Positions 46,776 through 61,352 of a DNA stretch of 64,000 nt are shown piece after piece. The stretch lies in assembly GCF_055900595.2 (NCBI RefSeq), contig NZ_CM148325.1; one strand, written 5' to 3'. How positions within the stretch are numbered: the first letter of the stretch is position 1; the number at the start of each line of letters is the position of its first letter. The notes beneath the pieces are model-generated. The model saw nothing but the letters and a program-made list of their open reading frames with translations. It did no database searches and was not told where the DNA came from. The translations under genes were made by a program, and so were the position numbers.

Positions 46776-48005
46776 TCAGGGCCAACGTTTTATGATGATG
46801 GATGTATTAATGCCGCCAAAGGCAAAGTTGTTACTCTGCAAAAACTCACAATCAATCTTGCGCGCTTCATGCATGATGTAATCCAGCTCGCCACAGTTAG
46901 GGTCTGGTTTATTCAGGTTTAGCGTAGGCGCAAACCAGCCTTCTCGCATCATTTGCAGACTCATCCAGGCTTCGAGCGCGCCACAGGCACCAAGCGTATG
47001 ACCAAAATAGCTTTTCAGCGAGGAGAGCGGCACATTATCACCGTAAATGGCTGCTGTCGCCAGACTTTCTGCCATATCACCACGATCGGTCGCCGTGCCA
47101 TGCGCTGAAATATAGCCAATATCTTGTGCGCTTAACCCGGCGATTTTCAGCGATTGCTCCATACAATACTGCATGGTTTCTCGCTGTGGTTGGGTGATAT
47201 GCGCGGCGTCGCAGTTAGTGGCAAAGCCGACGATTTCTCCATAAATGGTCGCACCGCGCGCTTTGGCGTGCTCCAGTTCTTCGAGAATCAGCGTGCCTGC
47301 GCCTTCGCCAATCACCAGCCCGTCGCGGTTTTCATCGAACGGTGAAGGGGTGGTTTTCGGCGCGTCATTATGCTGGCTGGTGGCGAAAAGCGTATCAAAT
47401 ACCGCCGCTTCTGAAGGGCATAACTCTTCGGCGCCACCAGCAACCATCACCGTTTGATAACCGTGACGAATGGCTTCCCACGCGTAGCCGATCGCCTGGC
47501 TGCCGGAGGTACAGGCGCTGGAGGTTGGGATCACCCGCCCGCGCAGGCCAAAAAATAGCCCGGTATTAACGGCGGTGGTGTGCGGCATCATCTGCACATA
47601 GGTGGTGCCAGTGATGTTATTGGTGTGCTTTTCAGTCAGCATGGTGGCGAACTCGCTCACCGGACCGGTACTGCCGGTCGATGAACCGTACGCAATGCCC
47701 GTTTCGCCGCTGGTTAATATCGGATCGCCAATCAACCCTGCCTGCTCTAACGCCAGCTCGCTGGCTCGGGTCGACATTTGCGACACGCGGCCCATCGCAC
47801 GGATACGCTTACGGGTGTAGTGCTCCGGTAGCGTAAAATCATCAATCGGCGCGCCAAGCAGGGTATGCAGGCCATCGTAAACCTGCCACTCCGGCATTTT
47901 GCGCACTGCGTTCTCATACGCCAGCAAACGCGCGGAAACGTCCTGCCAGTTTTCACCAAAGGCAGTCACGCCGCCCATTCCTGTAATCACTACGCGACGT
48001 GTCAT
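46776..48005 (-). CDS. apeR: Beta-ketoacyl-ACP synthase (KAS I/II-like), APE cluster
   Basis: 409 aa; active-site Cys in SSACTSGS, C-terminal HGTAT and GHTLGA motifs; symbol assigned by order/content match to the APE family. Confidence 0.75.
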   Translation of the reverse strand: MTRRVVITGMGGVTAFGENWQDVSARLLAYENAVRKMPEWQVYDGLHTLLGAPIDDFTLPEHYTRKRIRAMGRVSQMSTRASELALEQAGLIGDPILTSGETGIAYGSSTGSTGPVSEFATMLTEKHTNNITGTTYVQMMPHTTAVNTGLFFGLRGRVIPTSSACTSGSQAIGYAWEAIRHGYQTVMVAGGAEELCPSEAAVFDTLFATSQHNDAPKTTPSPFDENRDGLVIGEGAGTLILEELEHAKARGATIYGEIVGFATNCDAAHITQPQRETMQYCMEQSLKIAGLSAQDIGYISAHGTATDRGDMAESLATAAIYGDNVPLSSLKSYFGHTLGACGALEAWMSLQMMREGWFAPTLNLNKPDPNCGELDYIMHEARKIDCEFLQSNNFAFGGINTSIIIKRWP

Positions 48006-48733
48006 AACATCCCTCCGTTGATGGAAATAACCTGGCGGGTGACGTAACCCGCAATATCAGACATTAAATAACTGGCAAGCCCGGCAACTTCTTCCGCCTG
48101 GCCCATGCGTTTCATGGGGATCATCGACATTGCCTCTTTCAGAGCGCTCTCTTCCATTTCGATCATCCCGGTATCAATAAGCCCCGGCGCGATGCAATTG
48201 ACGGTGATTTTGCGCTTCGCGAGTTCGATAGCCAGTGCTTTTGTTGCGCCGATAATTCCGGCTTTGGCAGCACTGTAGTTCACCTGGCCGCGATTGCCCA
48301 TTACGCCGGAAACCGAGGACAGCGTGATGATGCGTCCGCCCTGGCGTGCGCCGATCATCGGCATAATGCACGGCTGAATGACGTTGTAGAAACTGTCGAG
48401 GTTGGTGTGGATCACCGCATCCCAGTCGTCATCGCTTAAAGCCGGAAAAGCGGCATCGCGGGCGATCCCGGCGTTACTAACCACGCCGTACCAGGCACCG
48501 TGTTGCGCGATCTCGTGCTCCAGCACTTCCCGACACTGTTCGCGGTTTGCGACGTCGAAACTGAGCAAACGCCCGTTACCACCGTTGGCGACAATGGCAT
48601 TCAGCGTTTCCTGAGCGCCTGCGGCGTCACGGTGATAGTGAACGCCAATGTTAAAGCCGTCTGCCGCCAGTTGGCAGGCGATGGCGCGACCAATGCCTTT
48701 GCTGGCACCAGTAACCAGAACTGAACGACTCAT
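48002..48733 (-). CDS. apeQ: 3-oxoacyl-ACP reductase (SDR, FabG-like), APE cluster
   Basis: 243 aa; Rossmann motif TGASKGIGRA, catalytic YSAAK; 4-bp overlap with apeR. Confidence 0.78.
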   Translation of the reverse strand: MSRSVLVTGASKGIGRAIACQLAADGFNIGVHYHRDAAGAQETLNAIVANGGNGRLLSFDVANREQCREVLEHEIAQHGAWYGVVSNAGIARDAAFPALSDDDWDAVIHTNLDSFYNVIQPCIMPMIGARQGGRIITLSSVSGVMGNRGQVNYSAAKAGIIGATKALAIELAKRKITVNCIAPGLIDTGMIEMEESALKEAMSMIPMKRMGQAEEVAGLASYLMSDIAGYVTRQVISINGGML

Positions 48734-49197
48734 CAGGACGCTCCTTGTTGAAACAGGGTGGTAAGTTCTTCCGCAGTCGGCTGGAAGGTGTTAATGCGGC
48801 CCGTTGCCTCGCCGTCGTTGATGCTGCACTCAAAACTGCCGAAGCGTTCATCTTGCATCAGCAGTTTGACGGTAATGGTCAGCGTCTGGCCTGCGGGCAG
48901 AATGCCAGCGGCGCAAAGCAATTCACGCGCGCCCAGTACCATCCCTAACTCAATACTGTTTTTGCCCTGCTGGTGGCGATGCCAGCCAGACCAGACGCCG
49001 ACGGTTTGCGCCATCAGTTCAAGGGCAAACCAGCCAGGGAGATTGCCGTCCGGGTCGAGAAACGGTGCCAGTACACCACTGGGCGAAACCGTCACGCGGC
49101 ACACGGCGCTGTCATCGCTGACGCTCACCACTTCTTCCAGCAGCAACATGGGCGCATCGTGGGGCAGATAAGCGCCGGGTGATAAATAGTGGCTCAC
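48733..49197 (-). CDS. apeP: Hotdog-fold dehydratase subunit (FabA/FabZ-like), APE cluster
   Basis: 154 aa hotdog-type ORF between KS and KR genes; 1-bp overlap with apeQ. Confidence 0.65.
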   Translation of the reverse strand: MSHYLSPGAYLPHDAPMLLLEEVVSVSDDSAVCRVTVSPSGVLAPFLDPDGNLPGWFALELMAQTVGVWSGWHRHQQGKNSIELGMVLGARELLCAAGILPAGQTLTITVKLLMQDERFGSFECSINDGEATGRINTFQPTAEELTTLFQQGAS

Positions 49198-59525: not shown

Positions 59526-60268
59526 CTACGGCTCCAGCGCCACTGTACGCGCTCACCAGGAAGTGAAAAAGCATCTGAATTTTGTAAATAGTGCTGTAAA
59601 AACAACATGCTTTGCGGCAGTGTTGTTTCATTGCCCGCAATGGCTGGCTGTGTTTCACATTGCCACTCATCGCCAGCTTCAATCACCAGCGCAACAGCAT
59701 ATGGCCAGGTCGGCATTTCTGCTGGGAGCTGCGGATGATAGAACTCAGGTAGAAAGCCATCAAAATCGACCATCAACACGCGCTGGTATCCCGCTTGTAA
59801 CAGGCTAAGCACTTCACACAAACCTTGCTGGAAAGTGTCGCGACCAGCCGAAAGCGATGAGGAAACGATCGGTTGTTTGGCCGCAATGGTCAGGTTACCC
59901 ACGGAAGAGTTGTGTACGGAGAGCGCGAAGTCCGTCGGAGAGAGCGCCTGTTCGGTTGCCAGTGCATGAACAATGCGGTAATTGCGCTCCAGCTCGCCAT
60001 GACGACTGGTATACAAAACGGCGTCTGGCTGATGGTGGCGTAGCATTGCCAGACCGCACTCCACGGCCAGTTTGCTGCCAGAACTGAGACGGCGGGCGGT
60101 CATCATTGGCAGTTCACTTAATTTTGCCAACGGTGCGGCAGGGTCAACCGCCCACGGCTGGCGCGACCATGCTTGCCATTGCTGGGCTTCGCTAAGTCCA
60201 GGCGCCAGTGCCTTCCAGTCGGTAATATTTAATGTAAATTTCATCAACGCGCGCCCGCGGTAAACCAA
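59522..60268 (-). CDS. apeC: Ketosynthase-like protein lacking the active-site Cys (chain-length-factor-like partner), APE cluster; start may be the internal ATG at 60244
   Basis: 248 aa; the position of the KS xACSSS motif reads HNSS (Cys replaced by Asn). Confidence 0.65.
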   Translation of the reverse strand: MVYRGRALMKFTLNITDWKALAPGLSEAQQWQAWSRQPWAVDPAAPLAKLSELPMMTARRLSSGSKLAVECGLAMLRHHQPDAVLYTSRHGELERNYRIVHALATEQALSPTDFALSVHNSSVGNLTIAAKQPIVSSSLSAGRDTFQQGLCEVLSLLQAGYQRVLMVDFDGFLPEFYHPQLPAEMPTWPYAVALVIEAGDEWQCETQPAIAGNETTLPQSMLFLQHYLQNSDAFSLPGERVQWRWSRR

Positions 60269-60284
60269 AATTATTAAGTGACGA

Positions 60285-61352
60285 TTATTTCTTTTGGCAT
60301 ATCAATAATGTATGCCCAACGCCTAAATTATCGTGGCGCTCTGCTACCTGAAATCCTGCTTTATTCAGATAGTCGTAAAATTTCTCTGCGCTATAGAAAC
60401 GGCTGTTACCGTTTGCCATGCAGGTAAAATAAAGTGAGGACGCGTTCAGGCTAAATGATGCTGCTTCAAACCGCTGCGCATCCCAGAACAACTCCATGAT
60501 GCAAACTTTTGCGCCAGGCTTCATTACGCTGGCGATTTTGCTGAGTATGCTAATTATTTGTTCGGGTGAAAAACAGTCTAAAAATTGGCTCATCCACCAG
60601 ATATCAGCCTCGCCCGGTAATGGGGCATCGCTTAGCATATCCACCGCATGGAAATCTATGCGATCAGAAAAACCTGCATTCGCGATATTTTCTTTCGCTA
60701 GTACGATTTGTTGTGGCAGATCTAATAACGTCACGGCGATGTTTTCATTGTATTTGCAGCAACGCAAAGCCCACTTACCCGTATTGCCGCCTACATCGTA
60801 CAATGTTGTGGGGTTGTTGGCGAATACATAAGGCAGTGCGGCGTTAAATGCGCCATCTGAATAGTAATGATCAAACGCAAACCAGCTTTCACGAGCGGCA
60901 TCTGGTAATTGTGAAAGTGCGGGATATATCGTCGACCAGTCGCCAAATACTTTTAACCCGGACGGTTTTCCTTCATTGAGTGAATCGGCGAGGAAGAAGA
61001 GCCCCTGATAGCAGACATCCTGGGTGAAATCCATATTCACGCGAGTCATAGTGTCATGCAGGAGGTAATGACCGATTTTCGCCAGGTAATACATTCCCTC
61101 TTTACAGGTAATAATTCGCCCGCTTAAGCCCATATCTAACAGAACGCTGGCCGCATATTCGTTGATATGGCTATGTTCGGTGATATCAGCCAGCGTTGCG
61201 CCATGTTTGCCTTGCCGATCCAGATATGAAAGTACACCCGCATTACGTAGGCAGAGAGCTGTTTGAAAAAGCATGGGGGCAAAGGCAATGCGTTGAGCTT
61301 CGGTAATCGCATCCAGTGCGCTAAGAGAATCCTGTTCGTACATGTTGGGCAC
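60285..61352 (-). CDS. apeB: SAM-dependent methyltransferase (O-methyltransferase-like), APE cluster
   Basis: 355 aa; SAM-binding glycine motif LYDVGGNTGKWA. Confidence 0.72.
   Translation of the reverse strand: MPNMYEQDSLSALDAITEAQRIAFAPMLFQTALCLRNAGVLSYLDRQGKHGATLADITEHSHINEYAASVLLDMGLSGRIITCKEGMYYLAKIGHYLLHDTMTRVNMDFTQDVCYQGLFFLADSLNEGKPSGLKVFGDWSTIYPALSQLPDAARESWFAFDHYYSDGAFNAALPYVFANNPTTLYDVGGNTGKWALRCCKYNENIAVTLLDLPQQIVLAKENIANAGFSDRIDFHAVDMLSDAPLPGEADIWWMSQFLDCFSPEQIISILSKIASVMKPGAKVCIMELFWDAQRFEAASFSLNASSLYFTCMANGNSRFYSAEKFYDYLNKAGFQVAERHDNLGVGHTLLICQKK

Follow-up and report, generated by a model that had tools for sequence, protein, structure and literature searches.

Aryl polyene (APE) clusters form what is described as the biosynthetic gene cluster family with the widest distribution in bacteria, and pathogenic Escherichia coli gains protection from oxidative stress as well as enhanced biofilm formation from APE lipids (PMC8253772). 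The experimentally characterised E. coli representative is the apeA-apeR cluster of strain CFT073 (c1204-c1186, 18 genes, 15.5 kb; Johnston 2021, PMC8253772; also described in Cimermancic 2014, as cited in PMC8253772). In a heterologous host, this cluster yields APE_Ec, and deletion of its core genes abolishes the pigment (PMC8253772). The full structure of an APE lipid is known for the Xenorhabdus doucetiae system only (Grammbitter 2019; preprint 10.1101/2020.12.19.423268), where the chromophore is a 4-hydroxy-3-methylphenyl hexaene, the same as in CFT073, and the anchor is a glycerol-phosphate-N-acetylgalactosamine (GalNAc) lipid that also bears a conjugated C26:5 acyl chain made by the cluster, for whose assembly ApeF is the proposed carrier. 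Here, we analysed a 64,000-nt stretch of an E. coli chromosome (NCBI RefSeq assembly GCF_055900595.2, contig NZ_CM148325.1; in the following, the window is this whole stretch) that carries an APE cluster next to acpT, which encodes a 4'-phosphopantetheinyl transferase (PPTase). Both the family and the locus are already known, and recognising the cluster here adds nothing to the family; the new elements are its extension to apeA and acpT, a shared deletion end point, and a two-block mosaic structure compared to CFT073.

With high confidence, the region 46187-61789 is the chromosomal acpT-linked E. coli APE cluster, comprising apeA-apeR and acpT and corresponding to the yhhT-acpT block of O157:H7. 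The annotation was taken from the near-identical record of E. coli Z0117EC0005 (NZ_CP098223.1), which shows 3 mismatches to the window over 22 kb. From nikA (44502-46076) to yhhT (62181-63230), every gene in between lies on the minus strand. A first-pass annotation, made from the sequence alone, had described 17 tightly packed same-strand genes at 46776-61352 as apeB to apeR without stating the strand; the open reading frame (ORF) listing and the RefSeq annotation of NZ_CP098223.1 both confirm 17 consecutive minus-strand genes, from the apeB start at 61352 or 61343 to the apeR stop at 46776. Although these coordinates are exact, the functional unit reaches further on both sides, to apeA and acpT, both of which had been omitted, so that the whole unit contains 19 minus-strand genes (apeA-apeR plus acpT) over 15.6 kb. 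Six junctions are 4-nt ATGA/GTGA overlaps (C-D, G-H, K-L, M-N, O-P, and Q-R), five are other overlaps of 1 to 32 nt (P-Q, D-E, H-I, I-J, and L-M), four are gaps of 1 to 11 nt (E-F, F-G, J-K, and N-O), and the single larger spacing within apeB-apeR is the 40 nt between apeB and apeC. The acpT gene starts 1 nt after the apeR stop. These junctions suggest translational coupling; the ape genes are probably transcribed as a single operon, and acpT is likely co-transcribed with them. All 18 ape ORFs and acpT are uninterrupted, and the GC content of the cluster is 55.3%, vs. 50.8% for the window.

The similarity to the characterised CFT073 cluster extends over the entire gene set. A single 14.9-kb blastn alignment (window 46776-61708, 90.8% identity) joins the two clusters, and 18 of 18 genes are colinear with c1204-c1186 (90.5% nucleotide identity overall), with the same order, the same overlaps, and ORF lengths within 1 aa of each other. 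The one-to-one correspondence of apeB-apeR that had been proposed is therefore borne out against experimentally characterised genes. Fourteen of the 18 proteins (ApeB, C, D, E, F, J, K, L, M, N, O, P, Q, and R) are 94-99.6% identical to their CFT073 counterparts. The location differs, however: the CFT073 cluster is found in an island with an integrase and insertion sequence remnants near pgaA-dgcT at 1.14 Mb, not by acpT. Unlike in the window, no PPTase gene adjoins it, and the regulatory DNA upstream of it shows no relation to the window sequence, the alignment stopping at 61708.

The assignment to the APE family is supported by the ketosynthase (KS), chain-length factor (CLF), dehydratase (DH), and ketoreductase (KR) proteins, which are far closer to solved Ape structures than to FabF/FabB. 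Their comparison with the alternatives in primary fatty acid synthesis, a check suggested together with the initial call, placed them with Ape structures and not with FabF/FabB, so that the APE family is favoured, as originally proposed. In a search of PDB sequences, KS, CLF, and DH proteins scored two to three times higher against Ape structures than against FabF/FabB/FabZ, and the top matches of the cluster proteins are solved Ape structures (6qsp A/B, 6qsr A/B, 7f27, 7f28, 4iiu, and 9ls6). The best match of ApeO is chain A of the X. doucetiae ApeO:ApeC heterodimer (6qsp_A, E 1e-173, vs. 3e-49 for the best FabF), and ApeC matches X. doucetiae ApeC (6qsp_B, E 8e-91), with 7f28_A as the sole further PDB match (1.4e-14). 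ApeR matches 4ewg (5e-165) and the A. baumannii ApeR structure 7f27 (7e-159), compared to 1.5e-72 for FabF, and for ApeI the FabZ-type matches are no better than 4.5e-06, vs. 3e-38 for 6qsr_A. ApeO, ApeR, ApeQ, ApeE, ApeF, and AcpT exceed the curated NCBIfam cut-offs, whereas the fabF, fabZ, and FabG equivalog models stay below cut-off for the cluster proteins. Among the 19 genes, no enoyl reductase was annotated or matched and no cyclase or aromatase was found, and the CLF is a truncated protein of 240 aa, not a full-length KS-beta; the gene set fits neither a primary type II fatty acid synthase (FAS) nor an aromatic type II polyketide synthase (PKS).

In the acpT-linked version, the PPTase gene has stayed with the cluster in cis, and this accounts for AcpT being an ‘orphan’ in K-12. 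AcpT modifies the O157:H7 homologues of ApeE and ApeF (De Lay & Cronan 2006, Mol Microbiol 61:232, as reported in PMC8253772 and PMC4103896), and it may be the cognate activator of ApeE and ApeF here, the modification being known from the literature only. K-12 had been said to lack the block at this position, and in MG1655 yhhT and acpT are indeed only 54 bp apart. Homology to K-12 passes through acpT to window position 46794, which means that the last 19 nt of apeR, including the stop codon, are kept; it is then interrupted by 34 unrelated bp and starts again at 62185, within the 3' end of yhhT. Because K-12 retains the 3' end of apeR, the difference is a deletion in K-12 and not an insertion in the window. 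In 5426 complete E. coli genomes, we found any copy of the cluster in 841 and an intact acpT-apeR junction in 569 (~10%). Around 89% of the complete genomes have the K-12-type deletion, and in a spread sample each junction-less record ends its match at 46794, as in K-12, which points to a single ancient deletion common to these genomes. Two cluster versions exist in E. coli, each at a locus of its own, and the one that has been studied, the CFT073 island type, is less frequent in the complete genomes (259 genomes with the CFT073-type apeH cassette vs. 566 with the window type). Citrobacter rodentium (compared locus L008), whose cluster has no experimental characterisation, has an identical context (tusA-yhhQ-dcrB-yhhS-yhhT-apeA...apeR-acpT); as the gene order is shared, the ape-acpT linkage predates the split between Escherichia and Citrobacter.

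Divergence from CFT073 is concentrated in two blocks, the edges of which are sharp at 100-bp resolution in the sliding-window identity. Block H (~55973..57800, minus strand) takes in the whole of apeH, the larger part of apeI, and one third of apeG at its 3' end, and block A (~61100..61801, minus strand) contains the first 60 apeB codons, the apeA-apeB spacer, and apeA, and continues into non-homologous upstream DNA. Within block H, nucleotide identity is 66.4% between the window and CFT073, 73.7% between the window and C. rodentium, 86.5% between CFT073 and the Enterobacteriaceae isolate ESL0689, whose cluster is not acpT-linked, and 67.7% between the window and ESL0689. The corresponding values are 68.6%, 76.1%, 87.3%, and 67.8% for block A, and 95.3%, 80.3%, 90.5%, and 90.7% for the rest of the cluster (12.6 kb). 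C. rodentium is thus the closest sampled relative of both blocks (74-76%; ~80% overall). The acpT-linked clusters of O157:H7 and strain 550 have the same block types as the window, and the island copy of strain KY172 has the CFT073 block type. In O157:H7, the yhhT-acpT cluster is 95.7% identical to that of the window at the nucleotide level, with acpT directly downstream.

Fast evolution was considered as the cause of the low ApeH identity and rejected, as the block edges are sharp and the affinity switches from the Citrobacter side inside the blocks to the CFT073/ESL0689 side outside. CFT073 as the chimera is less parsimonious: the identity between CFT073 and ESL0689 is 86-91% throughout, whereas that between the window and ESL0689 falls from 90.7% to 68% inside the blocks. 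Since the window changes its affinities between the blocks and the remaining DNA, and CFT073 and ESL0689 are coherent throughout, the more parsimonious reading would take the acpT-linked cluster of E. coli as the recombinant. It could be an old one, with apeA plus the promoter region and apeG'-apeH-apeI coming from a vertical yhhT-acpT lineage shared with Citrobacter and the other 12.6 kb from the CFT073-island lineage. Given that such a cluster departs from CFT073 in the enzyme that loads the starter and in all control DNA upstream, it could be regulated differently and possibly produce a distinct aryl head group, but we regard this extended scenario as rather improbable. The closest relative of the CFT073-type cluster, in ESL0689 (compared locus L009, 1-4148), has type VI secretion Vgr genes as its neighbours and lacks an adjoining PPTase gene, and the island-type lineage therefore seems to occupy varied genomic contexts. 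A few genomes match the cluster at two sites (see JNEC-KY172, compared locus L007). A strain with both the island and the acpT-linked version, if it exists, would offer the opportunity for the inter-copy recombination that the mosaic implies.

The two E. coli ApeH alleles are more distant from each other than either is from the Citrobacter or Klebsiella homologues; the window ApeH is 77% identical to its best non-Escherichia relative, and 66-77% is the usual spread across genera of the Enterobacterales. The window ApeH keeps 155 of the 157 near-invariant ApeH columns (at least 97% conserved), compared to 154 for the CFT073 allele, and both of its departures (A178G and L213F) are conservative. 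PDB sequences contain no solved relative of ApeH, with only distant fragments of nonribosomal peptide synthetase (NRPS) A-domains being matched (E ~1e-6). In characterised systems, the starter of ApeH is 4-hydroxybenzoate. As X. doucetiae and CFT073 share the same chromophore, the head group is conserved across clusters that are more distant. The substrate predicted for the diverged allele is most likely 4-hydroxybenzoate supplied by UbiC.

The individual genes, all on the minus strand, allow the pathway to be outlined, a mechanism that we infer from homology to the CFT073 and X. doucetiae systems. Every motif quoted by the first-pass annotation was found in the translations; its list of functions has 16 items, and the 17th gene, apeG, was missing from it. 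The acpT product (46187..46774) is an Sfp-type PPTase (NF007676 AcpT, 394 bits vs. a cut-off of 174) that would turn ApeE and ApeF into their holo forms. Both are acyl carrier proteins (ACPs), encoded by apeE (58472..58729; LGLDSIDALEL, with the serine in DSID; NF006617, 90 bits, above cut-off; PDB 9ls6, E 9e-25) and apeF (58209..58460; LELDSIDAVD; NF003757, 146 bits, above cut-off; 96% identical to CFT073 ApeF). The adenylate-forming enzyme encoded by apeH (56265..57626; TSGSTGQPK; PF00501 precomputed on all listed homologues) is predicted to load the aryl starter, adenylating the aryl acid and transferring it directly onto the ACP with no CoA intermediate. Elongation with malonyl units would be performed by the KS/CLF pair ApeO:ApeC together with ApeR. 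The apeO gene (49194..50363; PDB 6qsp_A; NF006618, 556 bits, above cut-off) encodes a ketosynthase with the Cys in ACSSS and the histidines in HGTA and GHTLG. Its partner apeC (59522..60244; PDB 6qsp_B, 7f28_A) encodes the truncated KS-like chain-length factor, in which HNSS takes the place of the active-site Cys; the RefSeq name is ‘beta-ketoacyl synthase chain length factor’, and PF13723 is assigned to the C. rodentium and ESL0689 counterparts. The second ketosynthase, apeR (46776..48005; ACTSG; NF006587, 780 bits vs. a cut-off of 470; PDB 4ewg, 7f27), is of the homodimer type.

In every round, the short-chain dehydrogenase/reductase (SDR) ketoreductase ApeQ (FabG2; 48002..48733; TGASKGIG and YSAAK; TIGR01831, 476 bits vs. 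a cut-off of 339; PDB 4iiu, E 4e-155, and 7czc) would reduce the growing chain, and ApeI:ApeP would dehydrate it, with no enoyl reduction, resulting in a conjugated hexaene. The hotdog dehydratase subunits are encoded by apeI (55925..56278; PDB 6qsr_A, E 3e-38; RefSeq ‘ApeI family dehydratase’), which lies in block H, and apeP (48733..49197; PDB 6qsr_B, E 6e-48; RefSeq ‘ApeP family dehydratase’). Methylation of the ring is predicted for the S-adenosylmethionine (SAM)-dependent methyltransferase ApeB (60285..61343; 94% identical to CFT073 ApeB), which matches the NCBIfam FlxJ-family methyltransferase model at 475 bits, below the equivalog cut-off of 560; its first 60 codons fall inside block A. 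ApeK, ApeD, and ApeJ would then set the chromophore free and couple it to a glycerophospholipid-sugar anchor. Of these, apeK (53832..54254) encodes a hotdog thioesterase of the 4HBT/YbgC type (TIGR00051, E 1e-16; 99% identical to CFT073 ApeK), and apeD (58704..59525) a lysophospholipid/glycerol-3-phosphate-type (LPLAT-type) acyltransferase (TIGR00530 AGP_acyltrn, E 3e-15; HX4D (HPTLID) and FPEGTR motifs; 97% identical to CFT073 ApeD). The apeJ product (54258..55934; 97% identical to CFT073 ApeJ) has an N-terminal GT2 glycosyltransferase domain (aa 8-130; PF00535, E 3e-20). It had been listed as a second acyltransferase; sequence searches (Pfam and NCBIfam) give the GT2 domain alone, and the C-terminal acyltransferase function is an assignment from the literature only, the role being drawn from an apeJ deletion mutant of X. 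doucetiae. An H-x4-E motif (HLGDVE) is present in the C-terminal 320 aa.

Transport of the pigment-lipid to the outer membrane would involve ApeG, ApeL, ApeM, ApeN, and the lipoprotein ApeA. ApeG (57623..58204) is a 193-aa polytopic membrane protein, the counterparts of which in other E. coli genomes are named ‘COG4648 family protein’ in RefSeq; a contribution to export or energising is proposed in the literature. The export module is complete: ApeL (53230..53835) is a LolA-like carrier protein (TIGR00547 LolA, E 2e-16; flexirubin LolA2 family, E 7e-15), ApeM (50946..53261) is an MMPL/RND-family exporter (HAE3 and HpnN family matches; RefSeq ‘MMPL family transporter’), and ApeN (50365..50949; 97% identical to CFT073 ApeN) is a LolB-like DUF3261 lipoprotein with the lipobox LTGC (RefSeq ‘DUF3261’), and the orthologues of the three proteins carry PF19574, PF03176, and PF11659, respectively. 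The first gene of the cluster, apeA (61412..61789; longest ORF start 61801), encodes a small lipoprotein (lipobox LAGC) and is separated from apeB by 68 nt. It is the counterpart of CFT073 c1204, and its product is 84% identical to the one encoded at this position in C. rodentium. Neither ApeA (in Pfam) nor ApeG (in NCBIfam and Pfam) has a family match. Deletion of apeA in CFT073 keeps the pigment, whereas the mature APE lipid is absent (PMC8253772). Once in the outer membrane, the pigment-lipid would quench reactive oxygen species and promote biofilm formation.

The presumed promoter region is the intergenic stretch between the yhhT stop and apeA (61802..62180, minus strand, 379 bp, 33.8% GC). 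It contains a single weak sigma-70-like candidate site (61995..61967), which is no better than chance, and a terminator-like hairpin of yhhT is located near 62135-62165. A search against Rfam at gathering thresholds over 44000-64000 returned no RNA element or riboswitch. Just past the apeA stop, a 9-bp GC-rich hairpin (GUCGGGCCG CUU CGGUCCGAU, window 61380-61400, minus strand) is followed by an A/U-rich stretch and falls inside block A, which is diverged from CFT073. The 86 nt around it have a fold z-score of -2.05, and the hairpin may weakly terminate or attenuate transcription between apeA and apeB.

With every ORF uninterrupted and the catalytic residues present, the strain can very probably make an APE lipid if the cluster is transcribed; the same product and regulation as in CFT073 might be expected by homology, and the lipid structure of X. 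doucetiae may likewise apply to E. coli. Several findings weigh against the assignment, or at least against its extension to function. Four proteins are clearly less similar to those of CFT073 (ApeG 81%, ApeI 72%, ApeH 66%, and ApeA 65% identity), and the C-terminal 320 aa of ApeJ (window 54258-55220) have no relative in Pfam, NCBIfam, or PDB sequences. Across the cluster and its upstream region, predicted promoters and terminators are no more frequent than in shuffled sequence and no promoter stands out. Chronic oxidative stress and a temperature of 37 °C raise the expression of the CFT073 cluster, but this regulation may not carry over to the window copy, as the upstream regions are unrelated. 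APE clusters are also often silent in the laboratory: that of X. doucetiae is silent, and that of CFT073 needed ectopic expression. Finally, O157:H7 TW14359 has premature stops at codon 302 of apeH and codon 44 of apeD (compared locus L005, 10993-12354 and 13432-14253), which are pseudogenes in RefSeq, whereas both genes are intact in the window. The O157:H7 strain whose ACPs were AcpT substrates can thus probably not make the pigment, and this decay indicates that selection on the locus is not universal. The cluster of the window could accordingly be intact but silent or dispensable, kept by drift at its ancestral site and heading for decay or loss. This is the most serious competing explanation, although we consider it unlikely: the K-12-type deletion in most genomes, the TW14359 nonsense codons, the silence of APE clusters elsewhere, and an AT-rich upstream region of the type usually silenced by H-NS (a link that we infer) all speak for it, but 18 ape ORFs and acpT have stayed intact over 15.6 kb with conserved catalytic residues, the arrangement is kept in 569 genomes and in Citrobacter, and the CFT073 homologue is expressed at 37 °C, where its proteins were detected.

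The divergent blocks raise a different question, namely whether the same machinery makes another product, with the xenologous apeG'-apeH-apeI cassette altering the processing of the chain or the starter, which might become, for example, 3-hydroxybenzoate, benzoate, or a cinnamate-type acid. The contrast between ApeH and ApeI and the flanking proteins, which are 94-99.6% identical to CFT073, the sharp block edges, and two ApeH alleles that are farther apart than either is from other genera would be in line with such a change. The number of near-invariant columns kept, an identity that is usual among genera, the head group that X. doucetiae, a member of another genus, shares with CFT073, and a cluster that holds no extra tailoring or precursor-supply genes make it a distinctly improbable outcome. 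Least credible of all is a product that is not an aryl polyene, i.e. a secondary FAS or another type II PKS making an unusual saturated or unsaturated acyl lipid. The RefSeq names (FabG2, beta-ketoacyl-ACP synthase, and FabZ-family dehydratase) and an older description of a ‘FAS-like synthase’ for the AcpT substrates, as found in PMC4103896, might suggest it, and part of the output is truly non-aryl in X. doucetiae, where the APE lipids contain the cluster-derived C26:5 chain. Yet, the KS, CLF, and DH proteins prefer Ape structures by two- to threefold scores, the nucleotide identity to a proven APE cluster is 90.5%, and enoyl reductase, cyclase, and aromatase genes are lacking. An acpT-linked APE cluster therefore remains the preferred assignment. 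It is precisely the enzyme loading the starter and the promoter region that set the two E. coli versions apart, and data on regulation and substrate are hence not transferable from one to the other without a test.

Two further features of the window lie outside the cluster. The chu/shu heme-uptake locus (chuS, chuA, shuT, hutW, hutX, chuY, and shuU) is found at ~1900-10860, as annotated in the near-identical record. The chuA gene is absent from K-12-like strains of phylogroups A and B1, and its presence places the strain in a chuA-positive phylogroup. At ~31966-33573, the window contains a DUF4049-family gene, a paralogue of yhiJ, which the near-identical record lists as a pseudogene containing an internal stop.

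Compared to other known systems, the cluster shares related enzyme families with the flexirubin and xanthomonadin clusters, visible as sub-threshold NCBIfam matches to the FlxJ-type methyltransferase, FlxB-type SDR, and LolA2 models. Flexirubin clusters differ, however, as the model scores here are below the equivalog cut-offs and neither halogenase nor dialkylresorcinol genes are present. The dissociated KS, ketoreductase, DH, and ACP logic is also like that of FabF/FabB/FabG/FabZ, but for the KS proteins the Ape clade is clearly the closer one. The X. doucetiae ape cluster, although from another genus and of lower identity, has the same apeB-apeR set, and its ApeO:ApeC and ApeI:ApeP complexes (6qsp and 6qsr) are the closest solved structures.

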